A stretch of DNA of 62,362 bases, counting the filler, from Stramenopiles sp. TOSAG23-6 (lineage: Eukaryota): assembly GCA_900128565.1 (NCBI GenBank). It is 12 parts of 12 records of this genome, joined end to end, with 100 filler letters (N's around TTAATTAATTAA, not from the genome) between each part and the next. Parts side by side here need not be neighbours in the genome. Positions count along the whole stretch, not along the records: positions 26,139 to 31,246 come from LT636975.1; 11 more parts are not named here. The stretch is one strand, 5' to 3'. Under the pieces are notes generated by a model. That model had not been told where the DNA came from, ran no database searches, and saw only the letters and a program-made list of their open reading frames with translations. Below are positions 5,298-61,117 of this stretch, piece after piece (positions within the stretch are counted from its first letter, which is position 1; every line of letters begins with the position of its first letter). The position numbers and the translations under genes were made by a program.

Positions 5298-5673
5298 TCA
5301 ACATTAAATCGTGGAAACCAAATGAATCTGAAGTTAGAGAAAGTACGTTTTCATCATTTAAAAAAAAAAAAAAAATATTTCGTACGAAATTTTGTACCTA
5401 ACAATTTTTTTTTTTTTAAATATTTTTCACTATACTTCTCTTGAACAACGATTACACCAACATGAAGACAAAGGTGTAGTGTCTGGCGATGAAAATGTTG
5501 AAATTGAGCAAATTGAAAAAGTTGTGCAAGAAAGTATTACTAAAAGTTTTGGTTCCAATGGTCAATATTGGAAAGATTTAGGTATAGAAGAAGAGAAAAC
5601 ACGAAATCAAGTTGCTGATTCGATTTTTGCTTCTCTTATAGACGATGTGGTGAAAAATCTTCAATTGAAATAA
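5298..5673 (+). CDS. C-terminal exons of a hypothetical protein (DUF4378-like end ..QVADSIFASLIDDVV); intron 5343-5437
   Basis: Frame is restored (EVRE-T-LEQRLHQ) by removing GT..TATACTT; the contig starts inside an intron-family copy. Confidence 0.5.
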
Positions 5674-9620: not shown

Positions 9621-10322
9621 ATGACAGAAGATATATTCGTTCCCCTCAATAGTGATTGCGAAAGTACTGTAAGGTATGAAAGACAACCTAGTAAACATCG
9701 TTCATCAGAAGAAATACTTGAAGTGCTAGACTTGGTGGGCGAAGCGTTCCCTGACGTCGTTGACGGCGAAATGGAATTCGAAGAGGACGATTCAAGTATT
9801 TTGCCAGGTGTACTAAATCTAACAAACACAATTCTTGGCTCAGGGGTAATCACAATGCCATATGCAGTACGCTTAGGTGGTATTGGAAGTTTTGTAGCTA
9901 CTCTTTCCTTCATTGCTTGGCTTAGTGATTATGCTGTGAAATTGATATTCATCGCTGTCGAGCGTTCCCGATTAATTGCTGCATACGACGAAAGCGCTGA
10001 ACGTTTACATCGCCCATCATTAACGATTCGAAGCGAAACTTTGATTCAAAATAAAGCAGAGTTTCTTGTAAGTTACGGTACGCTAGGAAGACAACTATTG
10101 TACGTTTTCTATGAATTTCTAATTTAATTTTTTTTCATACGAAATTTCGTACCTAACGATTTTTATGTTTGAAATATTTTTTCATAGTCCATGGCTATAG
10201 GAACATTACAGAAAGTGAATGTAATCCGAGCGAAAATGGTTCCTTTGTTGAGCCTTGTGATCCGAACCTATATGGCCCAAACGCTTCAATCAGCAGTTTG
10301 TGGATGGAAAGAAGATGGCGAT
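9621..10322 (+). CDS. Amino-acid transporter, AAAP/SLC38 family, N-terminal part
   Basis: NLTNTILGSGVITMPYA matches SLC38 TM1. An intron-family copy starts at 10100; the downstream exon join is unresolved. Confidence 0.75.
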
Positions 10323-11830: not shown

Positions 11831-14800
11831 CTACCGTTTACCTCGATATCTTAACCCAGAAGAAGTAGAAGACGCAGAAGAAACATTCTTACTTCCCGTC
11901 GAAGTAGACTTTGTTACATTTTCGGATGTACTACTTAATAATTCCGCTGCGGCAGCTTTCCGTCTACGCCAGTACATAAAGGCGCATCCTCCCCACACAA
12001 AAATATTTCCAGAACAGAAGATCAGTAAACCACCAAACACTTTAATAAATGTCATAAATACTGGCATTAAATCAGAAAGAGTGGTTGCCTTCGCACTTTC
12101 CATCATTGCTGAAAATATATCTGGAGAAAATACCCACGTACAGAACCTATCCCATACAAACGTACCAACTAATGCTAGAGAGACGAGATACATTACATGA
12201 AAACGAAATGCATCATCAGGAAATGGTTCCAAATGAATTAAACCATTTACATATGGGCTTACAGCCCACGCGCATGCACCCACGCCAGCAAAACATAAAA
12301 ATAACGACAAAAATAAAGCGTGATTTTCAATTGTACCTTTCATCCATGGTCTACCTTTGTAGTTTACAAATAAAACAGCAACGATTGATGATGTTTCTAC
12401 CAAAAATACGACTGTATTCATCAAATTTGGCATAAATGGACGTGACCACATAAACATAATATCTGCAAAAGGGTCGGCAGTTACATCTGTAATGTCAGAT
12501 TCTGAGGAATCCGATATTGCTTGGAGTGCATCATAATCATCATCATATGTCTTTGCAGCATTGCGATTGAAAGCAACCACAGCTTTTAATGCTTTTGGGC
12601 CCATTGCTTCTGTTGCTAGATGTACTGCTGAAACCATACAATACAAATGTATGCAGGCCTGGCCAATCATTGAAATAAATATTGTCGGGTGAAATAGTGA
12701 ATGCAATGGCCGTGTACGATGCATTTTATCTACAGGAGTTGCGTATGAAAAGGCTAAAGATGCAATCATAATAAGCCAAGACGAAGCCATCAACTGCCGT
12801 TCCGAACTTCGTGCACCTTCAAGTGATAAAGCTGAGAGAGTGTACGCTGAAATTATACATTCAAGCATCATATATAGTAAAAAAATATGTTTGAAGTTTG
12901 AATTTTGTTAGGCGCGTGACAAAATTGGACAACAAAAACAAATTAAAATTGGAATGAATGATGAAAACATACATGATCTGTTGCTGTTGAAGGGCACTAA
13001 GTAAAGTACAACGCCCTTGGCGAATAATATCAACAACCGTGCGAATCGTTGGCGTCCTTGAGGTAAAAGGAGCAGCCACTGATGCATCACCTGGGCGCAC
13101 AACAGGAAGCATACCTCCCATATCTTCCATATCACCTAAAGCATCCATTGGATTTCCAGAATCTGCTTTGTACACATTATTCTTCGAACCAAGTCTTCTT
13201 GATTCCATTTGCATTTCATTTTTGACTCGCAAAGTTACATTCTTTAAAGCAGTCAAATTTGCCATGAAACCTGTTTGCCCTTCTGCCGCAAGTCTTGCAA
13301 GTTCTTCTTCCAGCATTTCTTTTTGTTTTCCTGCCAATTCCTTTTGTTTTGTAGCGAGAATAGCTTTAGATTTTGCCTGCATCACCGCCTGGGAACGTTT
13401 TAAATCTTCGGCCTGTTTATTCAACTCATCTTCAGTACTTCCAGCACTATTTTCAATTTTGGATAATGATGTTTTATCATCTTTAGCTGTCGTTGTGTTG
13501 GCATTGCCGTACCCTGAAAGCAATGCTAGGCCAACATCAGCTTGTTTTAATGCACCAACGTCATTACCACCATCACCACACATAAGAACATGGTGACCTT
13601 TACGCCGCTGCATCTCACGAATAAGTATTGTGAAAAAATATTTCAGAAATTTGAAATTCGTTAGGTATGATATTTTAACTAAAAATAAATGAATTCATTA
13701 AAATAATCAAAACGTACAATCTTGGCTTTTCCTTGAGGAGACATTCGAGCAAATACTTGAATAGCATCAACATGATCCCACAACGTTCCACCACTTTTCT
13801 CTGCTGCCGCTAAGAGAACTTTTTCTGTTACAACCAAATTATTATGTTTTGCAAGTTCAGGAATTCCTAAAGCATTAAAGGGAACAGAAATACGTTCTGA
13901 TACATCACCCGTTGCAGAATTCCATGTAAATTGTTCACCAGTACTATCAACAGTCAATACCAATGACGAATAGCTATCCGTACCGATTTTAGATAAGACA
14001 TTCTTCTTAGAGTCACTTCCATTTTGTACAACATTGTCACGGCATATACCCACCTCTTTAGCAACATGAAGCGCTGTCAAAGGCGCATCACCTGTAATCA
14101 TTGCAACGGAATGGTCAGATTCACGCAAGGATCCTATTACTATACGCGAGTCTTTGCGAATCATACAAGTGAATGCAATAAAACCAGCGAAATGTAAATT
14201 GCTTTCTACCCACTCACGAGATGGACCATCACCACCTTCTGTACCGCATTCTCCCTTTGCACATTGTTTATAAGCGAGCGCAAGCACACGCATTCCATGT
14301 TCGGCAAGATGTCGATAACTCTCATCATACCAAGATGGAGCAGCGCCTTCAGCAAGTAATGATCGTAAAGCTTCAGGGGATCCTTTGACAAGACAATATT
14401 TACCACTGGAAAGGCCATTTTGGCGCCCCTCAACTTTACACACAACACTCATTCTCTGAAGCTTCGACGAGAAATGATACCGATGAAGTATCTTTGAAGA
14501 TGAAACAGCAGAATTTCGAGCTTTTTTTTCAACACTACAAATTTTATTACGAATATTATCTATATCCTTTTGTAAATCGGAAATTTGCATATTTTGTTCA
14601 GGAGTTGCAGGTGCATTACCCGATTTGATTAAATCATGTAAAGCCTTCAATTTTTCAGATACCATTTTTTCACGCTTTTTGAGATTAATTGTAGTACCAG
14701 GAGTAGCAGTGTTAGTATCTGCATTAAATTGCCATTGAACGCCTTTTAGAGCCGCGAGTTCTATAGGATCACCTACCATACCAACATCTTTAACCTTTAC

Positions 14801-20920: not shown

Positions 20921-21653
20921 ATCCCTGTCTTACATGTATTTCGGAAAAATATTTCAAAAAAAAAATCGTTAGGTACAAATTTTCGTACGAAAAAAAAATT
21001 CGAAATTGAAAAAAAATAAAACGTACATGTATTGGTGCTTTTTGTTTCACTTTGCAAATAACACCTTGGGTTGAGCATGCTCGACCTTGAATTTGTGTAC
21101 ACATGAAAGCACCTAAATTATAATGAACACAAAAATCCCAAATTGCTTTGACGTGTGCTTCACCAGCATAGAGATGAAGTGTTCCCATATTCCCCCCCTG
21201 GTTTTGATCTTTTATTGGTAGTTTAAGCAATAGTTTACAATCTACATGTTGACACATATGGTGTAAAATTTGCTCACACAAATTCAAAGCTAATTGGTGT
21301 CCAGCACAGAATGACTGTACAACTCCAGGCGTTTCGTCTCCTGTCCAAACACGAACACTTGCGTTTAGATCTTTAATTGGTATAGTTCTTTCAGCACGGC
21401 AACGCAAGTTGGTATTTTCCGTACACATTTTATGTAATATCATATCACAATACTCATAGGATAGTTCATTTTTCGAACAAAAGTTACGTACAGTTTTAAC
21501 TGGTGGTTGGCCTTTAAACACTTGCACAGTTCCAATCACGACATTATCTTCACCCCTGATGGGTATATGCACTAATAAATTCGGATCATTAAGAATAGCG
21601 GTAGCGTGGCGAATAGCTATGAGAAAAAATACCCCATAAAAGTGAGGAAACAT
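20921..21653 (-). CDS. Secreted protein with repeated ~55-aa Cys-containing modules; GT-AT intron 20934-21026; truncated
   Basis: Signal-like N-terminus and three FC..(x8)C..I...(M)C modules. Confidence 0.65.
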
Positions 21654-22032
21654 TCTAGATTTGAGGGAAGTTGATCAAGCTAAGAAGTTTCTTGAAATAA
21701 AAAAGATCTTAATACTACTGTCTACAGTCTACGCGGACACAACAGAAGAAAAGATCTCGACCAACTCACAAAAATAACGCTCAGAAATAATTTTTTTTTT
21801 CAAATTTTTATTCGAGAATGATTCAATTATTATTTCTTTCTATTCAGTATATATTAGGTACGAAATTTGTATACGGCTCGCAAAAGTCTTGATTTACCTG
21901 CGCTGTCTTCGCAACGAACACTAAAGATAATTCTACCTACAGTACTCCTCCTCTGGCGATACTCCTTCACGGCTCCCTATTGCTTTAATCTCCAACTGCT
22001 GCATTGTAATTACTTTTTAATTATCATACATT

Positions 22033-23838: not shown

Positions 23839-24070
23839 TTATTGTTTAAGTCGTGTGTGGTTGAACAAGTTGGTTTAAAGGTATTACCAAGTTTTGAAAA
23901 TAAAAAAATTTATCTCATTATTATTTTTAAAAATGAATATATCATTTTTATTTTCAAAAAATTTTGAAACATTACCCAAAAAAATGGTAAAACACTCATC
24001 TTTTTATTATCATTAGCTGCTTAAAAAAGTATGGCGAAACACTTCATTATCATCAAGCTGCATTCAGAAT

Positions 24071-26038
24071 CTACAGTTCTTCTTTGTCGTTTTCAGATAC
24101 AACAGGTGTTTCTGCATCTTCTTCCTCGTCTTCTTCTTCTTCAAGATCAAGATCAATTTCTTCATCAGTAATATCTTCTTCTTCTGGTTCATCAGGAACT
24201 TCGATTTCTGGGTGGAGCTCCAACGACTCTAAGTCTAGACCATCTTTCATGAGAGCAAACATTCTGCCAGCGAACGCTGTTGTGTCTTCCATTGTAAAAC
24301 CAGAATGTAAAACAGCTGTATCATAAAGAAGCCAAGCAATATTCTTTGCATTTTCACTTTCCTTATCGTCATCAATCATCTTCTGTAACTTTGTGACAAT
24401 TGGATGACGAGGGTTGACTTCCATCGTCTTCTTGGAGACAAGAAATTTAGATCGAGATGGATCCGCAAATGCTTGATTCTTCATGATACGTTCCATATTC
24501 GCAGAATAACCATATTGACTTGTTACAAGCACAACCGGGGAGGATTCAATTCTGTTCGATACAACAACTTTCGAAATTTTATCTCCATATGTATCTTGAA
24601 GGTAAGTTGTCAAAGATGTGAGATTTTCCTTGTGAATATCAAGACGCTTGACAGCATTTGTTTCATCTTCATCTCCAAACTGTAAACCTTCTTTCGTCAA
24701 TGACTGGAGTCTCTTACCATCGAATTCAGTTAAGTTTTGAACAGCATATTCATCAATAGGATCCACAAGAAAGAGAACATCGAGACCTTTTTTGCGAACG
24801 ACTTCAAGCATTGGTGATTTTTCAACCTGTTCTACAGATTCACCAGCAATATAGTAAATGTGTTTTTGCCAATCTTTCATATTATCAACGTATTGCTCCA
24901 ATGAAATGACTTCACCGTTAGAGTTAGCAGATTTGTAACGCAATAATTTTGACAATTTAGTACGGTTAGCAGAATCTTCAATAAGACCAAGTTTGATATT
25001 TTTACCAAAAGTATTCCAGAACTCAAGATATGGATCAACTTTTTCTTCTTCCTCCTTCTTTTCTTTTGGTTCTTCTGATTCATCAGCATCAAGATCTTCA
25101 GCTTCTTCTTCCGCATTTTCATGTTCTTTATCTTTTTTCTGTGCAAGCTTTCGCAACATTTCCAATACTTTACGAGTGAGTTTCTTACCCATTACTTTGA
25201 GGACTTTGTGTTGCTGTAAAGTTTCACGTGATACATTCAGAGGAAGATCATCAGAATCAACGACACCCTTCACAAAGTTAAGATATCTTGGAAGGAGTTC
25301 TTCAAATTCATCAGTAATGAGAACCTTACGGACATATAAGCGAAGATTAGCACTCTGTGCATAGTAGTTGTCGTACAAATCGTTTGCAGCAGTTTTTGGG
25401 ATGTACATGATGGAACGAAATTCAATTTCACCTTCTGCTTTGAAATGAATCCAACTCATAGGGTCATCTTGGGATTTTGTCATGGACTTGAAAAATTGTT
25501 TGTATTCGTCATCTTCAATTTCAGATTTATCACGGCTCCAAATTGCTTTTTGATCGTTGACAAGTTCCCAATCCCAAACTTTATGAGTTTCTGTACGAGT
25601 CTTTGGTTTTTCTTCTTCATCTTCTGCCTCGTCGTCTTCCTCGTCCTCATCAGCGTCTTCCTCGTCCTCATCAGCGTCTTCCTCGTCCTCATCAGCGTCT
25701 TCATTTTCATCTTCATCAGCAGGAGTTTCATCATCATCTTCTTCTTCAATTGGGACTTCAATTGTTTCATTAGACCACTTGTTGAGGTAGATTGGAAAAG
25801 TTACAAATTCTGAATAACGTTTTACTAAACCTTCTAAACGAGACTGATCGAGAAATTCAGAAGAATCTTCCTTCAAAAACAGAGTAATTTCAGTACCACG
25901 ACCAAGAGTATTTCCTCGAGGATCTTCTACAATAGAAAAATTGTTATCAGCTGTAGATGTCCAGATGTGCTGTAATTCGTCATCGTTATGCTTTGAAGCA
26001 ACACGGACACGATCAGCCACAAGATAAACGGAGTAAAA
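24071..26038 (-). CDS. HSP90B1: ER Hsp90 (endoplasmin/GRP94), 5' end missing
   Basis: [41 protein letters not shown] and a C-terminal KEEL ER-retention signal. Confidence 0.95.
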
Positions 26039-26138
26039 NNNNNNNNNNNNNNNNNNNNNNNNNNNNNNNNNNNNNNNNNNNNTTAATTAATTAANNNNNN
26101 NNNNNNNNNNNNNNNNNNNNNNNNNNNNNNNNNNNNNN

Positions 26139-29100
26139 CATGTATTTTGGAAAAATATTTGAAAAAAACGTTAGGTACAACATTTTTATAAAAAAAAAAC
26201 ATCATAGTAAAAAAAAAAAAAAAACATACATGCAACATTGCATAGTCGTGTCACGAATTCCCGAAATACTTGAAATACTAGGTCTGGGAGAGAAAAATAA
26301 TTGAGGCGTCCGAAGCATGGCAGTAAGTAATTGTACTACTTTTCCTTTCTTTTGTTGACTGTGTGACCGTAAATAGTACACTAGTATATCAAATAGACTT
26401 GAATTATATATTCCACGGGTCCCACTTTTTATGAGCAAATTAAGCAACCAAATTCCCCATAGTGTACTTGGTCCTTGCACGACATGTCGTTCGTTCTTCC
26501 ATGTACTGTGAAATATATTTTGTTTTTTTGTTAGGTACGAAATTTCGTACGAAAAAATAAATTCGAAATTGAAAAAAATAAAATATACATGTCGTAAGTG
26601 ATGCCGCATGTGATACACCTTTCAGATGATATCTTTTAGGCATTGCATATTGATTGTGCACTGACGTTGTATCACTTCCAACAATACTTCGAGCAAAAAA
26701 ACCTTGGGCTTTGTTGCCCATAGAATGCACATCAATACCTACAATCGAATGCTTGTCTGACCAAATAACATTGCTGCTATTTTCTTTGTTAGTAGATTCT
26801 TCAACGCAACTTTTAAGTACACAGTACACTATACCGGGTAGAGGTTTATTCCTTCCATTATGGACAACGTCGCCTAGAGATACATAACCTTCTATTGGAA
26901 TTGGCCGCCAAATTGTAAAACATCGATCTTTGCGATGCATATTAGCTGAAGTATGACTCTTTTTACTTGTATATAAAAGTTCAAAGTCTTGGGGAGTTTT
27001 TACTAAACCACTTCCATCATCAACACTCACAAGTGTGGTGCTTGGCGGATCATGACCCAAAACACAGACATCAGCCATTGATACGCAACCAGAAGGAGGT
27101 ACAGGTCTCCACCATGTATTGTGAAATTTTTAATTTTTTTTTAGTAAAAAAAATCGTTAGGTACAAAATTTGGTACGAAAAAAAAATCGATTTTTTTGTT
27201 TAAAAAAAAAATAAAACATACATGAAACANTTTCCGAATTTAAAGTAGCGTCTTGTTTCCGCAACAATCGGAAATTTTCTACTAACCTTGTAGGTATACC
27301 AGATAAGGGCATTACTGTAAATCGATAACCCCAGCGAGAACGCGAATTTATATCATGATACGATGCGGATGTATTGTGAAAAAATATTTTTTTGTTTTTG
27401 TTAGGTACAAAATTTCGTACGAAAAAAACTTTGACAAAAAAATAATGGTAACGTACACGATACTGATTTATAACCTGATGGTAAAGAATGCGTAAAGCCA
27501 GAGCATCCGAAATTCCATCGATACTTCACTGGCCTGTTACATGTCACTGCTGGGCATACTGCACCAGTTACATTAATATTAGTAAATGCTGTTCCCATTG
27601 GGGCACTAAAAGACCCATTCAAAGAAAATCGCACAATTCTATTATCAAGATCAATAGCACAACCAATTACAGTTCCATTAATCCATTCCTCTCCCCAGCT
27701 TTCACTTCCATTATGCCAACGTTGTTGACGGTGTCCATCAAAAGCCCATGAGTGTGCATCATCGCCTACTCCGTTACCATTGCTACTATTTCCTTCAAAA
27801 GCACGATCTATCCATCCAATTTGCGCTAATCCGCAACGCAACATATTGATCTCGTAATACCATTTTCCAGAATGAAGCCAAATGTCGCCAGCCGATATAG
27901 TTGGGAAATGAGCTTCTGTTGTTACGGTATTTGTTTCATCAATGATTGCTGCGCCAACTCCGGTTACAAACGCTGCTTCTACATTAGGTCTATTAGACAT
28001 CAGAGAAATTCTTGTTGGCATTGGTGCAACAAAACGATAATAAATATGATTGCAATTCAACAAATGAAAAGATTTAAAAATGTCACCCGTAAATCTTTTG
28101 AGTGGAACATCTGGTCTTTGTTTATATGCATCTTCATTAACGTAGAAAGATAATTGTGTCAACTTGCGATCGATATTCCTCTTTAAATTACACTTGCTAG
28201 AAAATTTCACCTGCAAAGACTGTGCGCCTTTTAAATATATTGTTTCCCCATAGTCAGAACCAATAAAATAAGGATGCAATGACTCTCGCATTTCAACACA
28301 ATTACTAACCGAACCATGTATAGTAGTTTGACTTGTTGATAGAACACCCTCGAAATTAGAAATACAATCTTTAATAAGAATGGTTGATATAGACGAGTTT
28401 GTTGCCTCGGAAGTAGAATCTTCCTTCATCAGTCGAAATATTATATTGCCTAGAGATTCCGCTAATTCAGGCATCAAATAATTACTTTCTCCCATACAAT
28501 CGTGAAGTATACCACACGCAGCTGGGACATGAGCACTGCTTATTAACTTATATAACTTTAATAACTTCAATGAACCACCAATGTGATCCAGGGTACGTCG
28601 AACAGTATGTTGAGGCCAATTTTTGATCATTGAAACTATTGCTTTTCTTGCGTTTTGAATAGCAAAAATTTCACATGTATCTGAAAACAAGTGTCGCAAT
28701 ATATTATATGAATCAATGTATTGTCCTAGAGGCTTGCCATAGTAGTGCGTAACGCGCCGAGCCATATATTTTGGAGAAATATTTTTTTTAGTAAAACAAA
28801 TCGTTAGATACGGATTTTTTGAAAAAAAAAAGTCAGGTAAAAATTCAATTTTGAAAACGCACATGTCTGCCGGAATAATACGATGCATACAAATTCCAGA
28901 TTCTGGATCCAGAGTACGAACTGTGAGCATTGCTGACATTTCTATAGAGCCATCATCATCGGATGAAATACTATCACCATCAATGGTTCGGCGCCTTGGA
29001 GATTTCCGCCAATTAACAGCAGTTACAATACCAACTTCACCTAATAAACAAAATTGAGGTCCGACTTTGTCAGTGAGTACTACAGTCAACCCTAAAAGAG

Positions 29101-31148
29101 AAGTTGCTAGACAGTCGTTTCCATTATCTAATAATGTAAGAGTTTTGTTCAATTCCAAGTTTGCTAGTTTTTCTAGCTCCGCATATGTTGTTGTTATAGC
29201 AATTGGTTCAGGTGTGCCATTTTTATAAGAGGCAGATTGACTACATGTATTTTGAAAAAATATTTCAAAAAAAAAAAATAAAATTTGTTAGGTACACATT
29301 TTTTATAAAAAACAAATTGATTTTTTGTTAAAAAAAAAAAAAAAAACACACATGGCATAACATGAGAAAAATTTGGATTCCAGACATTCGCCTTCACGTT
29401 TTTACCATCTGTGTCAATAAACGGCCGACCGAAATTACGGCTACATATGACATCTTTGAATCCAGGGAATCCAATCGCACGACACTCCGGACAACGCAAA
29501 AGAGACATTTGATAAGGAATGTTTGGATTTTCCTTGTGAGTTATCGGGAAATGATCTATTCCATATTTTGCTTCAGCTGGTGTTAAAGCACATAGTATTG
29601 GTTGTCGTAATTTTGTATTAGGAGTTGAACTTTCTAGCTTGTTCAATGATTTAGGAATCAATAAAGTAGCTGTGCGAGGTCGAGGGAATGAAAACGAATT
29701 GCTTCCAGAAGAAACTGAAGATCCTTGAGATGAATTAAGTCCTCGAGATCCAATGTGTAAATCTTTGTTTGATTTCAAGCCCTTTGTACCTACTTCCGTA
29801 TGTAAAGTTGATTTCCCTTTTGTATCAAATGGTAACATACCCCAAGATTTCTTTTCCAGTATTGGATCAGTGCTTCCTTGTTCTCTACAAATATTTTCTA
29901 TCTCTACAGCATCTAACACAATTTTGATTTCACAACTCGATTCTGTATTTCGTACAAAATGATCTACTTCCTTGTATAGCGTTCCATGTATTTTGGAAAA
30001 ATATTTCAATAAAAAAAATCGTTAGGTACGAAATTTCGTACGAAAAAAAACTTTGAATTAAAAAAAAAATAAAACATACATGGGGAACGAAACGAACCGC
30101 TACTAATCTGTGTATAGCTTGCGGAGGTTCAGGGAGTAATAAAGGAGCCAATACAACTTCCGGGGGGCCATTTCTGTTTATCTGATTAGTGCTAACAAAT
30201 CGACGCTCGGCATCAGCTACAGCTTGCGATCGTCCAAGTGGATGTGTTCTTTTTTTCTTATCATTACTTGCGGATGTACTTTCTTTTGCGGAAGATAAAT
30301 TATCAGTTATATATGCATGGCCTACAGATGTCTCTAAACATCTCACAGCAATGTCATTCACTTTTACACCTGACAAAACTGCTGTATCATCAGCATCTTC
30401 AAAATCACATTTTTCACGATTCATGACTTGGCCAACTTCGTTTACGTCATTTATATAATCTTTGGCGTATGTAGATCCATTTCGACTAGCCCATGCAATA
30501 GCATCTTCAAAATTTCCGTTGCAGAGTTCGATTGCTCGCTCACACAATTGAAAAGGTAAATCTGTCATAAGCATTATCTGTCGAATGTTTTTAAAGTTTC
30601 TACGTCTTGCAACCACATCGAAAATGTAGCCGTTTTTTTCCTCCAACTCAATAGAAACTTTTGTATCAATTTCAGTACTGGCTACTGGTAAAACAGATGC
30701 TTTCTCTGCAATTGCTTCTTCATATGGACGTTGTAGAAGCTCAGCTTGTTCTTCTACATATTCGCTGACTACTACTGATTCAGATGTACCATTATGTGTA
30801 ACTGGATGCGTTCGAAGAACTTCAATGTCTTCGGCAATATTACTTGTTTTAGCATCAACTGAGGAAGAGAGAAATTTTCGAGATGTGCCATATACATTTG
30901 TAGATACAGCACCACATTCTAATTTAGTCGCAATTTTATTTCTGTGCAATTGAGAAGATAACTCGAGTAAACTGGCATCATAATCATCTTCTGTTTCGAT
31001 AAAAGTATCATTTGGGAGAATTTGGGATAATTTCCTCTTTTTTGCTTCAGTAGTACGAGACAACTTTTTCCCTGAATCCCTATGTAATATTTGACCACAC
31101 AGAGGAGATGACTGTGAAGATTCTAATAATCGCTCTCTTAGGTTCATA
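26139..31148 (-). CDS. Internal part of a very large multi-exon protein with UBA-like, SPRY and Vps62-like (WRPxPPxG) regions, possibly a giant E3 ligase; GT-AT introns 26141-26229, 26501-26588, 27114-27221, 27369-27456, 28764-28862, 29245-29351, 29986-30079
   Basis: SPRY motifs (GKWYYEI, QIGW, GVGDDAHSWAFDG, VIGCAIDLD) and a UBA-like CERAIELCNGNFEDAIAW. One continuous frame results when each copy is removed at GT..TAY-AT. Confidence 0.8.
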
Positions 31149-31346
31149 CATTTTGTAAAAATATTTCAAAAAAATCAAAAACAATTTGTTAGGTACAAAA
31201 TTTCGTACGAAAAAAAATTCATAGTAAAAAAAAATAAAACATACACNNNNNNNNNNNNNNNNNNNNNNNNNNNNNNNNNNNNNNNNNNNNTTAATTAATT
31301 AANNNNNNNNNNNNNNNNNNNNNNNNNNNNNNNNNNNNNNNNNNNN

Positions 31347-34300
31347 CAGAGAGAGCATTGAGTTTGAAGAGTGTCTCTCCCACTAAGCTTTTCAAGTGGA
31401 ACATACGCGAGTGATGTGGCATCATAACTACTCAGGGGGATATTCGTTGTAAACTCTTTTTTACCCAAAACTTCATCTTTTAAGAGTATTAAATGTCCAA
31501 AGTATGATGAAGGGCAATCACATCGACTCTGTGTGTTATCACCAAGTATGAGTGTGTCTCCAGGACATTCAGTAGCAACATAAGAACCTTCTGCACAAAA
31601 TTCGCTCCCCTTACAAGCAACTTTTACTGCAGAATTAGCACATCTATGATTTGCTGGGCATATACTTATTGAAGATACACCTTCTGCACAATATACAGCT
31701 AATGTATTTGTCACTCCCGCGGCTGGTTCACAACTTTGTTTTACTCTCGAGTCAATACAATATGATCCAGCTGAACACTTTTGTGGATTATGAGATCCGG
31801 CGGGGCAGAAATAGGCCACTTCCTTTGCATCTGTGATGGGATTTTCAGAATCTTTTGGTTCATCAATTTCAGGAAAATCACAATTATATTTGTTTTTGCC
31901 GTTCTTGCAGTAATACCCAGGAGGACATTTTTCAGGCTTGGTTGACTTAGGTGGACAAAACCATGCAATATCAGCAGATTTCAACTTTGGATCTGGGTTT
32001 TGAGAATCCCATAAACAAGAAAGTTTTGTGGATGTAGTTGGACAATAATACCCCGCTCCACAACCTGAATTAGTCTCTACAGTGGTAGTGACTACTGCAT
32101 CGTCATCTGTAGTAACTTCTTCTACTGGGAAATTGGTAGCTTTGAACACAGCGTTAAGCACCGTAGTTATACCATCTGCACCATCTGTACTACCACCACC
32201 ATCTGCACCATCCCCATCGTTGCCTGTGCTGTCTCCATTATTAGCATCCCCACTGCCTTCGTCTACAACAACCTTGACTATTACTTTAAATTCGTGTATT
32301 CCTTCTACACAGGAATCCCATACACAATCATATATAACTGCAGGACTTTCACATAAGTTAATGAAATCATAAATCCATTGGGTAACCTCAGGGGCATCAC
32401 ATGATGATGTTTCAAGTCTACGCATTCGTCTCCCTTTAGGCATTGAAGCTGTTGTTTTCCATTCCGTTGTTTGAACCGTCTTAGCAGCCAACGTTCTCGT
32501 TCCTAATGGGCAATAATCATCGTCAGCACATTTTTCTTGTACTGCAGCGTTGCTACACTTATGCCCATTTGCACATAATTCTAATTTATCCTTAATCGTT
32601 CCTTCCTTACAATATGTTTGTGCGTCTGGAGAGGAATCGTTGTTGTCTGAATTATAGATTTTTGTTTCGGGTCGAGTGGGATCGGCATCTGTGGTTTCAC
32701 AAGGTTCTTCAAGAGGAGTGGGTCCATCACCAGAATCACAANGATATTCATAGTAACCTCCTTCACAATAACACCCTTTGCGACATTTTCTCATAGAACT
32801 CTTCCCATTTTTCATTTTACAAACCCACCCCGTAGAACTGTNCGTAAGAAAGTCTTCCTGCTCTTGTGCATTTCCGACGCCGTCTGCCCAAACACAACTT
32901 TTTGCTTCTGATGGTGTTGGGCAATAATAACCATTCGGGCACTCCTGGGGTGTTTTTGATCCTTCAGGGCAATACTCCTCTAAATCAACACAGTCTACAG
33001 GTTGCTCAGATATATTCTGGCAGTATTTTCCAGCCGGGCACTTTACTGCTTGCCTTGATTTTGCTGGGCAATAATAGCCATTTTTCTGATCGTCGTCATT
33101 GTGATAAGCGCAAGCTGTTTTAACCCTCGTTGTTGCACACATGTAACCCATAGGACAATCTTCTTGAGTCGCCTGTCCAGCTGGGCAATATTTACCTGTT
33201 TCACATGCTTTCGCTTCATGTGTACCTTCTGGACAATAATAGCTAATAGGACACTCTTCCTTTTGAGCTGCGGTTGTACATAAATACCCTGCTGGACACG
33301 GTACGCTTTGTTTTGATCCCATCTCGCATAATTTTCCCTTTTCACAAGGTATTGGTTGATCATTTATGTTAGGGCATTTGCTTCCGGCAGGACACTCCAC
33401 TGCCTTCGTTGATCTTGTTTTACAGTAATAGCCTTTGGATCCAGCATCGCTAGGATAAGCACAATCATATTTTTCACTTGGTGTCGGACACATAAAATTT
33501 GCTGGACAATTGCTTTCAGTTGCACATCCTCCTACTCTCCAATTACATCCATTAGTATCAGTACACTCAGTTGAAGTCGTTTTATTTCTGCAAGAGTTAC
33601 TTCCAAAACAATAACCTTCATTCTCACAATTACAATAGCTACCATCAACACATTTTATTTGTTCAAATTTACCTGTAGGGCAATAGTATCCAATTTCACA
33701 CTTCACAGCTGCCGTTGGGTTTTCACAGTAAAATCCTTTTGGGCACGGCGTTCTTGATAATGTTCCTGGTGGGCAGTAATACGAGACAACGGGTTCAGCA
33801 TCTACGCAATTTATTTTTTTCCGTGTACTGGGACAATAAAAAGATTCTTCACAAATAGCAGCTTCATTAGTAAGGTGTGTATTCCCTAGTTTACAATAGG
33901 TCGCTAGCTGACCATGTAAATGACATTTTTCAATTTTTTTTCCATAGAAAGTTACATCACCATCAACAGTTTCAGGACAATAATATCCTTCAGGACAACC
34001 TCCTGCAGATGAACTTCCTTCGGGACAATATTGACCTCTCACACACTTTTCTTTTTCTGCACTTGTTACACAATAGTGGCCACTTTCACATAGANCGCAA
34101 NTTTCATTTTTNTCATTAGGAGCATGGGTTCCTGGGCCGCATNTTTCACAATAACCNCAATCTTTCAGTGAGGCATGATTATCTATATCGCCACCGCAGC
34201 TTTCTTTCACGCCGTCAGATTTTGGCATACATCCTACAGCAACTTTCCAGTTACATCCANTAGTATCAGTACACTCAGTTAAAGTCGTTTTATTTCCGCA

Positions 34301-36451: not shown

Positions 36452-36608
36452 NNNNNNNNNNNNNNNNNNNNNNNNNNNNNNNNNNNNNNNNNNNNTTAAT
36501 TAATTAANNNNNNNNNNNNNNNNNNNNNNNNNNNNNNNNNNNNNNNNNNNNATTTTGTACCTAACAAATTTTAGTTTTTTTTTTTGAAATATTTTTCCAA
36601 AATATAGG

Positions 36609-39600
36609 ATCGGCATGAAAGAACATTACATCTAATTGAAACAGAAGTTGAAAAACCAATAGCTACAATTAAGAATTGCGTCAGTTGTCGTCAAAAAATC
36701 AAGAATGATAATACTCAGAGATTTGTATGTTTTCTGGATTAATTTTAAATTAATTTATTTTTTTTTTTCGTATGAACTTTTGTATGAATTTTTGTAGCTA
36801 ACAATTTTTTTTTGAAATATTTTCCCAAAATACAGGAGTGTGTTCTTAAAGATAATTCTACAATAAGTCCTAATGAGTACGAAACAATAGCAAATGATGG
36901 TATTTGCACTTTATATGATTTGCACGATTTATTAGGATCGGATGTATGTTTTATTTTTTTTTTCAACAAAAAAATCGAATTTTTATTTCGTACGAAATTT
37001 TGTACCTAACAATTTTCTTTTGAAATATTTTTCCAAAATATATGATCAAACAATTTTTAAACCTTTGTGGTTGGTTGATCCAAAATTATTTAAAATTAAG
37101 AAATGCGTCAGTTGTAGTCAAAAAATCAACAATGATAATACTCAGAGATATGTATGTTTTCTGGATTAATTTTAAATTTATTTATTTTGTTTTTTCGTAT
37201 GAACTTTTGTATGAATTTTTGTAGCTAACAATTTTTTTTTGAAATATTTTCCCAAAATACAGAAGTGTGTTCTTCAAGATAAATCTACACCAAGTTCTAA
37301 TGGGTACGAAAAAATAGAAAACCTCGACTGTAGAAACAAAAGAGAGAATGTTGAATGTAAATGCGTAAAGTCCAAAAAAAAACCAGTCAGCGAACCGGGA
37401 TGTTTTTGTGGTGGACATTTTTGTGAATCTCATAACTATTGTTATAATAATAATAAAAACGAAGCAACATGCAGCCCAACAATAGCTAGAGCTCATTTAC
37501 TATCAAAAAGAGATAAACCACGAATTGCTTTTGAAAAGGGATGCACATTGTATGACTTGTTCAACACTCATAAAATATTGAAACGAATTCCAGACTGTGC
37601 AAAGTGTATGTTTTTTTATATTTTACTGTTTTTAGTAGGAAATTTTGTACCTAACAACTTTTTTTTTCTACACGGTTTCATTAAAGTTACAAAATATAAC
37701 TTTTTATTTTATCTCTAACAAAACCAAATATAAAATTGTATGCCTAACAAAAATCAATACAAGACAAAAAAACAAAAAAAATATTTCTTCACTACACATG
37801 TAAACAATTTAAACTNAATAATGATAAATCACAANGCTATCAGTGTGAAACAATTTCGCAACCTGTGCGATTTGATTTTACCGATTGTATTCAGTCATTT
37901 ATAGATAAAGTACCGTCAAATTGTATGTATGTTTTATTTTTTTTTATACTATGAATTTCGAATTGTTTTTTATAGTACATTTTGTACCTAAACCTAAAAG
38001 ATTTTTTTTTTTTTGAAACTAAAAAAAAAATTTTGAAATATTTTTCCAAAATAAATGTGCGATACCCGTTTTTGTCGAAAAGGTAGCTATTGTTATGCCA
38101 AAGAAAAAGGAGGCAAACCGTCATGTACTCTTCAGGAACGCGAAATTACTGAAGGTTGTCCGGAAGTGAATCAATCATCATTTAATTTAAATAATTTAAC
38201 TGATGATGAGAAAGCACAAATGTATGTTTTATTTTTTTTTAACAAAAAAATCGAATTTATTTTCGTACGAAATTTCGTACCTAACAATTTTTTTAAGATT
38301 TTTTTTCGAAATATTTTTCCAAAATACATGGAAGAAAAAATTAAGGAAAAAAAGCTTTCTTTCGAGTGTTTATGTGATGAAAAGGTGTGCAAAGTGAACC
38401 AACAAAATTGTTTTCATAGAAAAGTCTTAGGGTTAGGGTCAAAAAGAGCCTGTAGTTGCCCATATTCCAAAGTTTCAAAAGTACCATCGAACTGCTTCTG
38501 TGGTAAAGAGTACTGTGAAACAGAAAATTTTTGTTATATCGACGAAGAAGGAAATAATTCACCTACATGTATGTTTTTTTTCAAAATTGTTTTTTTTTTT
38601 CAATATCAAAATTGTTTTTTTTTTCAATTTCAAAACAAAATTTTTTTTTTGAAAATTTCGTACCTAACAATTTTTTTTAGATTTTTCTTGAAATATTTTT
38701 CCAAAATACATGCACACCCATGGCTCCAACAAAACAAATATGTGAAGCATCTGAAACAAACAAGATTTTATCCGATTGTATGTGTAATAATTCATTATGT
38801 AAGACAAATTTTTATTGTTATAAAGGCGAAAATGAAATAGAAAAATGTTTTCAAATAGAAAAAGAAGCTGAAAAATTGACACAAAAAGGAGAAATTCATT
38901 ATAGTGCAAAATTTGAGAGAGCGGATGAGCTTGACAATTTGTTAGATACATTGAAAACCAACGTAACAGAAGACACGTATGTTTTTTTTTGTTTTTTGTT
39001 TTTTTTCAAATTTGATTTTTTTTTTCGTACGAAATGTTGTACCTAACATTTTTTTTTTTTTTTTGAAATATTTTTCCAAAATACATAATTTACAAACATC
39101 TACTCAGCAAAGTGTTCAATGCCAATAAAGGTAGTGTTCCCCAAGGTAGTGTTCCCCAAGAAGCATCACTCATAAACTGGTTTGCAATAAATGAAAGTGG
39201 TACGAATGTAATCAATTTGGATCAAATGAGACGAGAATTAAAATGGTTAGATCAAAATGAAAAAAACGATGTTGACAATTTTGAAGCTCTTGAGGAAGAC
39301 TATGCAATAAGTCAAATTGATCAATATTTAGTTGATCGACTTCGTTTTAAAAAAAATGCTCCAATTAAAAAAAAGTCGAAACAAGTTGCTCCAATTAAAA
39401 AAAAGTCGAAACAAGTTGCTCCAATTAAAAAAAATTCGAATCAAGTTGCTCCAATTATGTTACAATATTTAGATAATTATGATAATGAAAAAGATACTAG
39501 GATTGCGGAAACTAATAAACAATTTGAAAAAGTAAAAAATGATGTCACACAAGAACTTTTAGAGTCAGATGAAAATGTGAAACATTTAGAAAAACAATTC

Positions 39601-41550: not shown

Positions 41551-41654
41551 GTACGTTGTCATCATGAATTTCATTGTTTTGGTACGAAATTTTGTACCAA
41601 ACAAAAATTATTATCTGTTTTTTTGAATGTTTTTTTATTGACTACATTTTCATT
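40597..41654 (+). repeat. Tandem array of at least four ~290-310-bp exon+intron units
   Basis: Near-identical introns GTACGTTGTCATCATGAATTTC..CATACAACAG alternate with diverging short exons (RKGELE..LAQTNDRV). Confidence 0.92.
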
Positions 41655-42279: not shown

Positions 42280-42536
42280 AGTCTAAAATAAATATGTATA
42301 ATGTACTTTAATGTTTTGTCTTTTTTCTCTATTTTTGTTGTATCAAAAACAAAATTAAATCAAACAAGAGATTTTATATTATGCAGCAGAACAGGTTTGT
42401 TTGAGCATTCGATCACAAACCTGCTTGCTGTGCACAAAGTTAAAAAAAAATTGAAATTATCGACACTGAACTGACTTATTTTTTCTTTGACAAAGCTACA
42501 ACTACACACACACCACCGCAGACTTCAAACTCAAGC

Positions 42537-45280: not shown

Positions 45281-46848
45281 TTAATTAAATTGTGATGACG
45301 GTCTTTTTTCATTCTTATGTTCACTTATCAATAAGCCTTTACCATCAATTTTGTGTTCAATTTATTTTTTTTGTTAATTTAGTTACATTTTTTTTCAAAT
45401 TTGTTAGGTACGAAATTTTCTATAAAAAAAATCGGAAAAAAAATTCGGAAAAAAAATTCGGAAAAAAAAAAAACATACATGTTCATCTTCTGTCCAGCTT
45501 TCATCTCCACTACTAATTTCTTCTTCCTCAAGTATTTCTTTCATTTCTGTAGTCGCAGATCTTGCAGCAATCTGTGATTCTACTACGTCTAGTGCAGTAC
45601 TTTGAACATCAATAGTTAGTCTCTGTAAAACACATGGATCTAGAGCATGTATTTTGGAAAAATATTTCAAAAAAAATCGTTAGGTACAAAATTTCGTAAC
45701 TTAAATTTCTTAGGTACAAAATTTCGTACGAAAAAAAAATCGATTTTTTGTTAAAAAAAAAAATAAAACATACATCTCTATCCAAAGCTGAGATTTCATC
45801 ACGTAATACTGCAGCAGCTTCAAAGTCACTCGATCGAATGGCGTCACGGAGTTCAGAAAGTTTTTCATCAACAAGTACTGTGAAAAAATATTTTTTTTTT
45901 GATAAAATATTGGTTAGGTACAAAATTTCGTATGGAAAAAAAATGAAATGAAACAAAGAAAGACAACCGTACAATTTCACGCAGAGCTTCAATCCACTCT
46001 TGTTTTTCAACATTCTCAGATAAAACACGGCTTGCTTCCTCAAGTTCGCTATCATCTATATATATTGTACAAAAATATTTCAAAAATTTGGTTTTTTGTT
46101 AGGTACAAAATCTCTGGATTTTCAATGAAAAAACAAATAAATTTGAAATTCATAATTATTTTCAATGAAAAAACAAATAAATTCGAAATTCATAATGAAA
46201 TCGTACACCTTCTGAAAGCCTAACCATTCTTTCCCGTCGAGATCTTTTACGTTCCTCCTCGGAATCATAGGACACATCCGAATCAAAATTATTATCATTC
46301 GTTTTACTATTTTCCATATTTACATTCAAAGTTGGTGATTCATTATTTCGCACATTTTTGACATTCTTCATTTTTTGATCGTTTGTAGTATTTTCTTTAT
46401 GTTGCATGGATTCCTTAGAAGAAATAGCATCATCATTGTCATTTACACGAGTTTCACTATTCACTACCAGAGAAAGATTACTCTCGAGGTAATTTCGTGT
46501 TCCTCCATGTTCTTCACCCCAATCAATTAACCACCTTTTTTTGGCAATATTATACGAAATAACTAAACCTGAAATTCCTTTTTTAGAGCCTCGTTTTGCT
46601 ATAACAGTTTTTCCAGGAGCAATAGTTTTGTCATCAGAAGTATTAGAATGTTTTATATCTCGATAAATTGTCTTTTTTATATCTGGGGTAGCTTCATCAT
46701 TAGGGTTACAGTTATTCAATTTGGCTTCTGATTTGGCTTCTGGGGTAATGGATTTGTCACGTGTTTCATTTGAAACCATATTCATACGTAATTTCATTGA
46801 TTTTCTTGATGATGTATTAAATAATACTCCAGGTGTAGATTTTGAAGA
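45281..46848 (-). CDS. Multi-exon hypothetical protein with UVR (UvrB/C) coiled motif; introns include 45647-45773 (GT-AT) and 45873-45972 (GT-TT)
   Basis: LRDAIRSSDFEAAAVLRDEI motif; joins REI-VDEK and LDRD-ALDP are in frame. The last junction is uncertain. Confidence 0.6.
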
Positions 46849-47442: not shown

Positions 47443-47589
47443 GTGTATTTTGGAAAAATATTTCAAAAAAAATATATAAAAAAATTTGTTAGGTACAAAA
47501 TTTTTTTACCAAAAAAAAAAAAAAATTGTTAGGTACAAAATTTCGTACGAAAAAAAAATTTAATTTTCGAAAAAAAAATTAAAACATAC

Positions 47590-51424: not shown

Positions 51425-51479
51425 TACATTTTTTTTTATTTTTTTTTTAAATATTTTTCGTAGGTAATTTTGTACCTAA

Positions 51480-51517
<38 letters not shown>

Positions 51518-51629
51518 TTTTTTAAAAAAAATTTTTTACCTAAAAAAAATTTAAAATTTTTTAAATTTTTTTTAAAAAAAATTTAAAAAATTTTAAATTT
51601 TTTTTAGGTAAAAAATTTTTTTTAAAAAA

Positions 51630-51667
<38 letters not shown>

Positions 51668-54591: not shown

Positions 54592-56392
54592 ATGTTGTCC
54601 AGGGCCAATGAGAGTACCACATCTGATTCATCCTCTGAGTTGCCAATTGCTTCAATAGAGACGTTGGTGCAACAATTATCTGAAAAAGCAACAATTGAAC
54701 AGGAGCTCTATACTACAATAGACAAGTTGAAGAATGTAAAGATGGTTGGCGTCGATTCGTGGTCAAGTAAGCTCAGTGAAGTAAAAGTCATGGCGCAGAG
54801 ATTAAATTTCATGCGCACATCACTCCAAGAAAAGGATTTAGTTATAGAAGAACATCGGCAGAATTATTTAACGTTAGAAAGACAAAATGCACTGCTGAAG
54901 CAGAAGGCTTTTGTGTCACATGATGACGAATTGAATATCAAAAGTTCTTTAGAGTCACGGGTAGTTGAACTAGAAACAAAACTATCGAAAAAAATGGAAG
55001 AATGCAACGAATTCGAACAACTATTTATGAAAATACAGTTTGAACTTGAGGCTGCTCAGCGGACTATGGAGAGTTTAAATCAACAAATCACTGATCAAAA
55101 AGTTCAAATTTCAAATATGGAGCGCGAAAAACTTAGCTCTCAAGAACTCACAGAGTCAACTCGTCACACCTTATTAGAAAAAGTGCAGTGTTTGGAATCT
55201 GAAGTAAGAAAATTAAAGGACGAAAATGCAACCATTTTAAGGCGAACAGAGGATATAAAAACTGAATTAGAAATTGAAACTGAATCCAAGGATAGGTACG
55301 TTTTCGTCATGAATTTCAAATTTTGTTTTTCATACGAAATTTTGTACCTAAGATTTTTTATTTTTTATTTTTTCACAATACAGGTTACGACGTAGAAATA
55401 TTTCATTGACTACAGAAATGGAAAACTATGAAAAAGAGACCCTGGAACTTCGGAATGAGGTTGGTAATTTAGAACTTCGTCTATCTCAAGTAACACGACT
55501 GAAATCAATAGCTGAAGAAGAAACCCGGGAGGTTGAAGTTGAAGCTATGCAATGGAGGGATGAGGCTCGATCAGCGACTGATGCAGCATACGGAATAGAG
55601 CTAAAGCAAGCTCGTGATAATGATTCTCTTCGTAAAAAGGTTGATGGAGCTGAAGAGGCTAGACAAAAATTAGAAAAGCAAGTGAGTGAAATGCAAGCTC
55701 AGATAGATTCTTCAATGCCACGCGTTGAAAAAGCTGAGTCAGCAGCGAGAGAAGCACAGGCTAGTGCGGATGCTGAGGTCATTAGACTTCAAAGTGATAT
55801 GAAAAAACTTATGCTTCAGCTGGAAGATCAAACGGGAAAAATAGGTAATATTCAAACTCAGTCACAATGGAGAATGGATAGTTCAACTGTATCAAAAGGT
55901 AAAGGAAATAAAGATGGAGCAAAATTCAATTCTTTATCAAAACATGCAGCAAGTATTCGCGAGGAAATGAAGAATTTCCAAAATAATAGAAATGTGGATA
56001 GTAAAAATGATAGTTTTCCTTCAACAGTTCAATCAGAATATTTCGGTCCTTTGCTGGTGAAGGATGATAAAATAGAAGGTACAATTAATCCTTTACCAAT
56101 ATTAACCCCAGTGCCAATAAAAAAGGGTGATAAGCCATTATATGTACCAAATTTACCTGTAAATGACGATGAAGTGTCCAAAGCAATGGCTTTAGATATT
56201 AACGTTGCAATGGAAGATGCTCTTAAGGAAGCGAAAGAAATTGAGCGTCGACTACGACGCAAAACTAAAGGGAGTAAAACGAACAGCAAAACAAAGAATA
56301 AAACAAATAGTCGACAAAGTACTTCAAAAGGACTTCGGAGAAATCGTCAACATCGAAGTAAGCCTTCTTCGCCATATCTAAACAATAAATAA
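54592..56392 (+). CDS. Coiled-coil protein; intron 55296-55383 (GT-AG, exon also ends AG)
   Basis: Two ORFs join as SKD-R-LRRRN; heptad-rich. Confidence 0.75.
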
Positions 56393-58893: not shown

Positions 58894-61117
58894 GTCTTCA
58901 ATTTGTGGTTGAACAAAATATTTCAACATTTGATACGGTAACACAGTCACAAAAAAAAGTAACTGTAAAATCAAAGCTAAATTTAATTGATTTAGCTGGA
59001 AGTGAAAAATGGAATATAATGCATGTATGTTTTTATTTTTTTTCAATTTTTTTTTTCTACATTTTTTTTTCATACGAAATTTTTTTACCTAACAATTTTT
59101 TTTTTTACTAACCAAAAAAAAAAAAAAAACTTTTGAAATATTTTTCCAAAATACATGATATGTCAGTAGCTCATCAACAGGAGTTACAAAATATCAATTT
59201 ATCATTACATACTTTAGGGCGATGTATAGAGAAATTATCCTCACATTCTCTACAACACATTCAAAACCCTAACCCTAGAAAAACAAAAAACCCTAACCCT
59301 AGAAAAACAAAAAGACATATCCCATTTCGTGATTCTGTCTTAACTCGATTATTACAAGATTCTCTAGGTGGAAACACAAAAACATTTATTCTTGCAATGA
59401 TTACTCCATCACAATTAAATATAAATGAAACAATATCAACACTAAAATTTGCAGACCGGGCGAAACGAATTCAGATGAAAGTGAAAATAAATCAAATTCG
59501 TAAATTAGATTTGGCGTCATTTGAAAAACTTGAAAATGAAAACAAAAATTTACGTTTTATTTTACAAAAACTTTCAAAAAATATAAATGTAGAACATTTG
59601 GACAACAATTTGGAATCTAGTACAAAAAACAATACAACAAAACAATCGAAATCATCAAATATTTTACAAAAAAATATTATAGACTTAACAAATGACGTTT
59701 TGAGATTAAAAGAAGAAAACAAAAAATTGCATAAAATGTTAGACAATCAATCTTTACAGTATTCAAACCCTACTAACCCTAGTAATACACTACATTGTAC
59801 CTCAGATCAAAATCAACAAAATCAACAAAATGATCGTGTATGTTTTATTTTTTTTTTTTCGGTAAAAAAAAAAAAAAAAATCGATTTTTTTTTTTGGTTT
59901 TCGTACGAAATTTTGTACCTAACAAATTTTTCAAATTTTTTTCTCAAATATTTTTCTACAATACATGAAGAAATCCAAATACTGAGGAGTGCTTTAGATG
60001 TAATGATATCAGGTTGTTCAAGATTTTTTAAATTAGAAATTGAGGAGGATGATTTACAACAAGTATTTACTCGTGTTGTTCAACAAGTACACGAAATAAA
60101 GGAAAAGAAAAAAAAACCCAACCCTACTAAAAACCCTAACCCTAATGAAAAAGCATGGATTTCGTCCAGTAGACGAACATCGTTTATAGCTGCTTTACGG
60201 AACCCTAACCCTAACAATACATATTCAACAAAAAATGTCCAACGATCATCAACGGCACCACTACCGAGTACATTTGCTCAAAACAGACGTTCTAATATGG
60301 TATGTTATTATTATTATTATTATTGTACAATGTAAAAATATGTTTTTTTTTTTTTTTTGAAATTTTTTACATTTTTAAAATTTTTTCATTTTTTTNAAAA
60401 AAAAAAAAAAAATTTTAAAATTCTAAAATTCTAAAATTCTAATATTTTTCATTTGTTTGACATATCAATACAATACATGTACATTTAAATACAAAATATC
60501 GCATCACAGGAAGAAATACAGATGAATCATCAGTGTTTATTGATCCTGTTGAAGTCGAAGAACGAAAACAAAAACAAAAAATAAAAAACTCACGAAAAAA
60601 AATCGAAAAACAAAGAAAATTGATGTTATATATGCAAAAAAAAGCAAAACGAGACTTGGAAATTTTACAACAACACGAAAAACAAAGAGATTGGGAAGTC
60701 GAACAGTTACGTAAGAGTAATGCGAAACGGCTACGACGTGCTCAAATGAATAAGTTAAAAGTATTAAAATATAGAGAGAAACAAATGCAACAAATTGAGA
60801 AAATGAGAAAAAATAAAACATCTACAATTAATAAAATTGATGATAACGACGAAGATAATAACATACTTGATGAGTATACTAATCAAGATATAGCTAATAT
60901 AGATAATATGGATAATATAGATGATATGGATGATATGGATAATATGGATGATATAGATAATTTGGATAATATAGATAATATAGATAATAATATAGATGAT
61001 GCTTATAATTATAAAGATGAATCAACTGACACTGAATGTCCAAAAAATGAGACGATTAATGATGAAAATGATGCTGATAGTATCAATAGTGATAATGAAG
61101 GCGATATTGTTGTATAA
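58894..61117 (+). CDS. Kinesin, C-terminal half of motor domain plus coiled-coil tail; introns 59025-59156 (GT-AT), 59838-59966 (GT-AT), 60300-60509 (GT-AG)
   Basis: [57 protein letters not shown]. Confidence 0.92.

Follow-up and report, generated by a model that had tools for sequence, protein, structure and literature searches.

Short repeated introns ending mostly in AT, a two-nucleotide target-site duplication and a U1 RNA that complements their donor in an uncultured marine stramenopile

Genes of Stramenopiles sp. TOSAG23-6, an uncultured marine protist, carry a highly repeated family of short introns that begin with GT and mostly end with AT. These introns very probably form an Introner system of the U2-type spliceosome, in which the duplicated target serves as acceptor, the cut is made in the GT register and U1 has been recoded. 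Nearly all introns start with GT and end with AG, and the U1 small RNA marks their starts. The sequence analyzed here, termed the window, is a stretch of 62,362 nt made of 12 separate contigs of about 5.1 kb each joined by linkers; the assembly from which it is drawn is incomplete and comprises 21.1 Mb in 6236 contigs.

In the model that we favor, a non-autonomous element of approximately 100 nt (GTAYGTTT...CCTAAC...GAAATATTTTTCCAAAATAC) would have inserted thousands of times into the genes of a heterotrophic stramenopile. Each insertion would copy 2 nt at the target site, AT in about 90% of cases. The element would supply the donor and the branch point, and the downstream copy of the duplication would become the acceptor; the resulting introns would be GT..AT and, less often, GT..TT, AC, CT, GT, GG, AA or AG. 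The major (U2-type) spliceosome would remove them in the GT register, aided by a U1 whose 5' end, as observed, appears recoded to pair with CAT|GTAYGTTT. The 3' cut would most likely be set by a conserved 3' motif that lies 34-49 nt beyond the branch point rather than by scanning for AG, and the match between exon end and intron end would be dispensable after insertion, the intron end staying or becoming AT. A more sweeping version of this model stands, in our judgment, an even chance of being correct: that one transposon family re-tuned the major spliceosome, with the recoded U1 as the only U1, a 3' motif that picks the acceptor without any dinucleotide requirement and bypasses good YAGs, and GT-AT as the default for family and non-family introns alike.

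The position of the host was examined with Prp8, for which the best named matches are to oomycetes (79-80%). A quick tree of 24 sequences (the query and 23 of 120 hits, animals left out) places it among stramenopiles, outside both oomycetes and ochrophytes, with support of 0.77 for the stramenopile group. Gene families are named from Pfam for genes in the window; the family names given to genes outside it are provisional. Family introns are absent from an HSP90-family gene (window 24071-26086), from Prp8 (L035/L036) and from two long translation-factor frames (G000:C288 and C1255), and several are present in divergent HSP70 and PPase paralogues; selection against family introns in highly expressed genes is possible. 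The window also contains a minus-strand frame of 1734 codons that is rich in ambiguous bases and lacks family copies (31295-36499), a run of tandem exon-intron units (40636-41654) in which CAG closes the longer and seemingly older introns, and DUF4116 repeat proteins at 42444-43670 and 53363-54316. A PP2C gene region (approximately 51000-52040) is present twice, inverted, within contig 10 and resembles an amplification artefact.

A 24-nt family core matched the 21.1-Mb genome 7236 times, a count inflated by duplicate contigs, compared to 0 matches for the reversed control. Removal of 120 copies at their called ends opened the frame in 91 cases in the sense orientation and in 8 in antisense, and when the cuts in the same copies were offset by 1 or 2 nt the sense frame opened in only 17-21. 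The core count and the sense frames argue that the copies do not arise by chance. The intron caller, which took GT or GC starts only, called 202 copies, and 185 of these carry a CCTAAC or CCTAAG motif 34-49 nt before the intron end; CCTAAC is the predicted branch point, as it is complementary to the GUAGUA of a standard U2. Genome-wide, the letters following 2046 exact copies of the 3' motif are AT in 1854 cases, AA, AC or AG in 126 and a non-A base in 66, which limits members ending in AG to at most 126 of 2046; the terminal AG of U2-type introns is thus mostly absent from the family. AT also ends 90 of 103 untargeted copies whose removal restores a frame. The terminal inverted repeat is 4 nt long (GTAY..RTAC), or 6 only if the palindromic AT is counted, and its ends do not covary. 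The base following the element is G in 64 of 133 copies and T in 23.

Neither an autonomous parent nor an empty-site allele was found in the genome, in a search that covered one transposase family, and the core and U5-U2 cluster patterns had no match in the metagenome or viral contigs searched, from which close relatives may be missing. An intact-looking Harbinger-like transposon is present at L160 (G000:C2432, with near-identical copies on C2433, C2439 and C2440), with a 508-aa transposase frame, a convergent second frame and a family core between them. It was rejected as the parent: its own end differs, and about one core copy per 3 kb is expected by chance.

The initial annotation of this DNA had likened the 2-nt repeat at the intron ends to a target-site duplication, and copies that do not end in AT bear this out. 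Twenty-four of 35 non-AT intron ends copy their own exon end, spanning seven different dinucleotides, whereas permutation gave a mean of 4.7 matches and a maximum of 13 in 20000. A position-by-position comparison used 85 full copies with an exact 3' motif, a set deliberately enriched in non-AT ends (30 of 66 non-A and 20 of 126 AA/AC/AG loci were fetched). Exon and intron match at position -2 in 83 of the 85, at -1 in 74 and at -3 in 24, and the duplication is therefore of 2 nt. Reading the AA/TT pair at 5343 as a reverse complement (hairpin) fits 0 of 35 non-AT ends. The repeat is a true 2-nt target-site duplication, locus-specific in the sense described in the accessible text of PMC9860276.

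Four copies in which the two sides of the duplication differ had been singled out previously, and their coordinates and dinucleotide pairs were confirmed. The one at 27369..27456 (minus strand) is 88 nt long (GTACGTTA...ACAT), with exon end GT and intron end AT; its conserved core ending in CCTAAC occupies 27400..27423 (minus strand), with the predicted branch adenosine at 27401, 32 nt from the 3' end. The exonic GT lies at 27457..27458 (minus strand), and its G is the third base of TCG. As had been noted, TCG and TCA are silent alternatives that give the same peptide in both registers, so this site is uninformative at the protein level. The others, all on the plus strand, are at 59838..59966 in a kinesin gene (129 nt, GT/AT, R versus H), 38977..39086 (110 nt, AC/AT, T versus I) and 5343..5437 (95 nt, AA/TT, ET versus DS). 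The kinesin intron is stop-free and in frame if retained, and could be read through; frame alone does not demand its removal.

Further copies in the window extend this range. Asymmetric pairs occur at 10100..10192 (plus strand, TT/AT) in an amino-acid transporter gene and at 46060..46206 (minus strand, GT/AT), while a TT/TT duplication in a P-type ATPase domain at 13623..13717 (minus strand) yields a GT..TT intron and an AG/AG duplication at 55296..55383 (plus strand) yields a canonical GT..AG member of the family. The copy at 37152..37262 (plus strand, AT/AG) would acquire a TAG stop in the shifted register; its tandem duplicate at 36725..36835 (plus strand, TT/AG) differs on the exon side and has the same intron end. 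An AT/AC copy with a doubled core at 47443..47589 (minus strand) is flanked by exons that are out of phase, and is a probable chimeric assembly join, so it is not valid as a reporter of register. Contig breaks often fall inside the family core. Two other loci, L101:1431-1522 and L118:1030-1121, have the element and 3' flank in common and different 5' flanks, probably through a chimeric join.

The 27369..27456 intron belongs to a gene fragment with SPRY and Vps62-like domains (26230..31145, minus strand, on contig 6 of the window), from which removal of six family introns (29986-30079, 29245-29351, 28764-28862, 27369-27456, 27114-27221 and 26501-26588, all minus strand) leaves 1443 aa without a stop. 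Whether this junction was an assembly chimera had been raised at the outset. Its removal joins the SPRY exon to the next exon at the spacing seen in homologues: past the junction 4 of 150 homologues align well, and the best keeps the same 15-residue spacing. Since homologues cross the junction with equal spacing, this site, the only one so tested, is not a chimeric join and its downstream AG is not used.

The sole U1 gene found is on two identical contigs (L043:9-645 of G000:C1146; also C6122), in a head-to-tail cluster of U5, U2, U1 and U4 genes that fits within 640 bp. Its 5' end reads AAACGUACAUG, compared to the Rfam consensus AUACUUACCUG, and is complementary to exonic CAT plus intronic GTACGTTT; the change extends to the exonic -1 position, where C9 has become A and pairs with T. 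Averaged over the 202 copies, Watson-Crick pairs out of a maximum of 11 number 8.83 in the GT register (9.99 including G-U pairs) versus 3.61 in the shifted register, and a consensus U1 would form 6.79. The four mismatched copies each form 9 pairs unshifted and 1-4 shifted. The candidate scores 54.1 bits, below the Rfam cut-off of 69.5, and folds modestly better than its shuffles (z -1.86). Its first two loops likewise diverge from that of Rfam, a hint that the U1-70K/U1A partners have changed. A pattern for canonical U1, ATACTTACCTG, had 7 matches versus 10 for the control; a canonical gene could be missing from the incomplete assembly. One intron of canonical form (AAG|GTAAGT..CAG), in an HSP70 paralogue (L153:634-780), pairs poorly with the recoded U1; it may belong to a residual class or point to a second U1. 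U2, loop 1 of U5 and the ACAGAGA box of U6 are standard, and the family donor pairs with that box as well as with U1. As the initial annotation had stated, the donor is not of the U12 type, RTATCCTT occurring in 0 of 202 copies in either register; U12 and U6atac gave 0 matches in this incomplete genome, in a search that had no positive control.

Coding sequence and RNA also bear on the register. A 2-nt shift creates an in-frame stop at 5 of 36 asymmetric copies, two of which have non-AG ends, and the opposite, a stop confined to the GT register, is seen in one low-scoring call (L083). Four junctions were compared with solved PDB structures, and the alignments of two, in ankyrin (CT/AT) and ADP/ATP-carrier (CA/AT) genes, cover the junction, those of PPase and cathepsin ending short of it; at both covered junctions the unshifted reading gives the alanine of the structures and the shift gives aspartate. 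The RNA junction evidence comes from one GT..AT intron outside the family, in a cathepsin L gene (L147), where polyA RNA contigs skip 94 nt with GT..AT ends that permit no slide. The skip is seen in runs X1 and X2 (one sample) and X7 (another study); X4 covers neither junction. The same contigs also skip a 102-nt GT..AG intron. The GT..AT intron is not recognizable as a family member, with a 3' motif score no better than 387 of 2000 shuffles. The runs were found using window DNA, and the contigs with the junctions differ from the locus at only 2-4 bases; judged by sequence, the organism that supplied the RNA is very likely the same as that of the genome. An intronless allele is an unlikely source of these contigs, as both introns would have to be lost in a 99% identical strain. 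In the best RNA runs, no more than 0.21 of the sequence words of 20921-30920 are present, roughly the fraction that the intronless HSP90-family gene makes up in this interval. From U1 pairing, shift-induced stops, the conserved alanines and the L147 junction, we conclude that the introns are cut as GT..NN and not as AT..AC. The expectation that mismatched copies would report the register is thereby upheld, the site at 27369 being silent.

How the acceptor is chosen is less simply described. A fixed ruler from the branch point was rejected since the distance varies over 34-49 nt, as were use of the first YAT (an earlier one lies upstream in 130 of 136 AT-ending copies) and of the first AG (41 of the 136 contain one after the branch point). 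Some internal YAGs follow the branch point by just 9-13 nt, a distance that might be too short for any spliceosome. In ATPase, hydratase and synthetase genes, conserved motifs are recovered when introns are removed at called ends of TT, GT and CT. The simplest model would be an altered U2AF-like or second-step factor that reads the conserved 3' motif. In yeast, structures described in the accessible parts of bioRxiv 10.1101/212811 and PMC12707134 show the acceptor AG pairing with G(+1) and the branch adenosine; a retained A(-2) with a relaxed -1 position fits the observed bias, and by analogy A(-2) probably still pairs with the branch adenosine. An altered Prp8 alpha-finger was rejected, the sequence being identical to human apart from KW to RF. 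U2AF1 was not among five zf-CCCH loci read of 15 matches, and U2AF2 had no match above the cut-off in the genome.

The main alternatives each place the cut, or the origin of the repeat, elsewhere. Were the register shifted, the introns would be NNGT..AC (mostly AT..AC) and the downstream dinucleotide exonic. The initial annotation was right that the junctions can slide by 2 nt, freely at about three quarters of sites, and the shift also agrees with the scarcity of silent differences on the upstream side (2 of 20) and with the one low-scoring call that is open only so; yet it lowers U1 pairing to 3.6 of 11, introduces stops at 5 of 36 asymmetric copies, turns alanine into aspartate in the ankyrin and carrier motifs, disagrees with the L147 GT..AT junction, which cannot slide, and finds U12 donors in 0 of 202 copies, while non-AT targets would have introns starting with TT, CT, GG, AC or AA. 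We consider it highly improbable. It is barely credible that the true acceptors are ordinary AGs within or downstream of the element, with AT merely the end of a repeat. In its favor, AG ends a minority of copies, 41 of the 136 copies with an AT end have an AG past the branch point, and the next downstream AG at 27369 is in frame, but using the last would delete a motif conserved in homologues. Internal YAGs restore frame in only 8 of 26 non-AG copies, and the first downstream AG in 41 of 111, both at chance level, whereas called ends exactly restore kinase, SDR, HSP70 and AAA motifs; for one intron, that of L147, this alternative is contradicted, as splicing there passes over an AG located 23 nt before the AT end.

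Asymmetric copies might also be chimeric joins between halves of different elements, or the elements might be eliminated as DNA or lie unspliced in dead genes. Contigs breaking inside the core, the out-of-phase exons joined at 47443-47589 and the L101/L118 pair with its shared element and 3' flank all point this way, but the exons joined at 27369 are adjacent in four homologues and asymmetric copies lie within continuous ankyrin, carrier, HSP70, PPase and urocanase sequence. Asymmetry is moreover less frequent among the copies most alike, in which chimeras would be expected most often: among 103 untargeted copies, 33 of 35 in the best-scoring third are symmetric versus 46 of the remaining 68 (p 0.003). 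The sense orientation of the elements also argues against this alternative and rules out DNA elimination, and we regard the whole of it as extremely unlikely. A last alternative concerns origin only: no target would be duplicated, and the element's own terminal AT would be kept after an exonic AT through U1 pairing, by a proto-splice-site or reverse-splicing route. It draws on older copies, many of which end in AT irrespective of the exon end (18 pairs among the 103 untargeted), on an inverted repeat of just 4 nt without covariation, and on the lack of a linked parent transposase, but the 24 of 35 non-AT ends that copy their own exon end, in seven dinucleotides, make it quite unlikely. Target duplication with removal in the GT register remains our preferred reading.

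The exon/intron match had been proposed to decay in the manner of a target-site duplication without being strictly required. The duplication and the dispensability of the match for splicing both hold; simple neutral decay holds only in part, as the mismatch is one-sided. With the element score as an inferred proxy for age, exon-side AT declines through successive thirds of falling score (34/35, 23/34, 20/34), and intron-side AT runs 32/35, 31/34 and 27/34. Comparing the best third with the rest, exon-side AT differs (34/35 versus 43/68, p 0.00008) and intron-side AT does not (32/35 versus 58/68, p 0.53). Differences in copies with a non-AT exon end and an AT intron end are silent in 2 of 20 cases, versus 18% expected at random, which argues that decay of the coding copy is not the main route; considered by itself, it would agree with the shifted register. 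In three cases AT on the exon side would introduce a stop or substitute for a conserved alanine; at these sites it is therefore the intron end that has moved to AT. The tandem pair at 36725 and 37152 shows an exon-side change. Duplication at insertion followed by change on both sides, with a pull toward intronic A(-2)T(-1), plus some chimeras, is the likely history.

The family shows the marks of Introners: many near-identical copies, a locus-specific target-site duplication, sense orientation and removal that exactly restores protein. As far as the accessible text of the cited papers goes, it most resembles the Chrysochromulina type of Introners with target-site duplications (Gozashti et al. 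2022, PMC9860276; reviewed in PMC11282704), which share a high-copy short element, a locus-specific duplication, a marine protist host, a donor from the element with an acceptor from the duplication, and an unchanged mRNA length. The Chrysochromulina duplication is of 4 nt, whereas here it is of 2 nt and mostly AT, and the acceptor is thus not AG; in the accessible part of PMC9860276, GC/GA donors are given as the only rare sites. Non-canonical U2 introns of Fritillaria borealis and F. pellucida, in the portions of PMC13326754 available, are likewise transposon-derived and U2-type, with AT the commonest 3' end and the exon end repeated 3'. Their main donors are AG with a YAY triplet repeat, whereas ours are GTAYGT with a 2-nt repeat (our caller being limited to GT/GC starts). 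Fritillaria, a fritillariid tunicate, has a duplicated U2AF and two U1 versions whose identical 5' ends lack strong complementarity to the non-canonical donors, in contrast to the recoded, matching U1 of this host, a stramenopile by Prp8.

For U1, the available text of bioRxiv 10.1101/2022.06.08.495308 describes recoding that pairs fully with an atypical genome-wide donor in Entamoeba and Mastigamoeba, with nothing comparable in 69 yeasts, Thecamonas or Mamiellales; unlike those cases, the change here covers exonic -1, matches a transposon end plus its target and accompanies loss of the AG acceptor. U12-type AT-AC and rare GT-AT introns are also known, the latter from only a handful of cases in the part of PMC1557818 consulted, whereas GT-AT is here the majority class and the RTATCCTT donor is absent. 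PHIS transposons of the ISL2EU group duplicate a 2-nt AT within A|AT|T and have inverted repeats starting with GG, in animals only according to the accessible text of PMC4482050; the present element starts with GT, ends with AC, is mostly followed by G and tolerates other dinucleotides. The element is thus not ISL2EU, and the introns are not U12-type but U2-type except for their AG. Precedents exist in fritillariids for the AT acceptor and in Entamoeba for the recoded U1; for the combination we found no report in the open-access literature searched, the supplements of PMC9860276 and PMC13326754 aside.

Gene finders built on GT-AG will mis-model genes that carry such introns. The stramenopile is a second lineage, besides fritillariid tunicates, in which a duplicated target became an AT acceptor. 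In the accessible parts of bioRxiv 10.1101/212811 and PMC12707134, the terminal AG is explained structurally by the pairs it forms with the branch adenosine and the first base of the intron; thousands of GT-AT introns alongside a standard U2, U6 and Prp8 alpha-finger are a natural test of acceptor choice free of AG. The recoded U1 is a rare match of an snRNA to a transposon-derived donor, and makes the order in which introns and their machinery coevolved testable.
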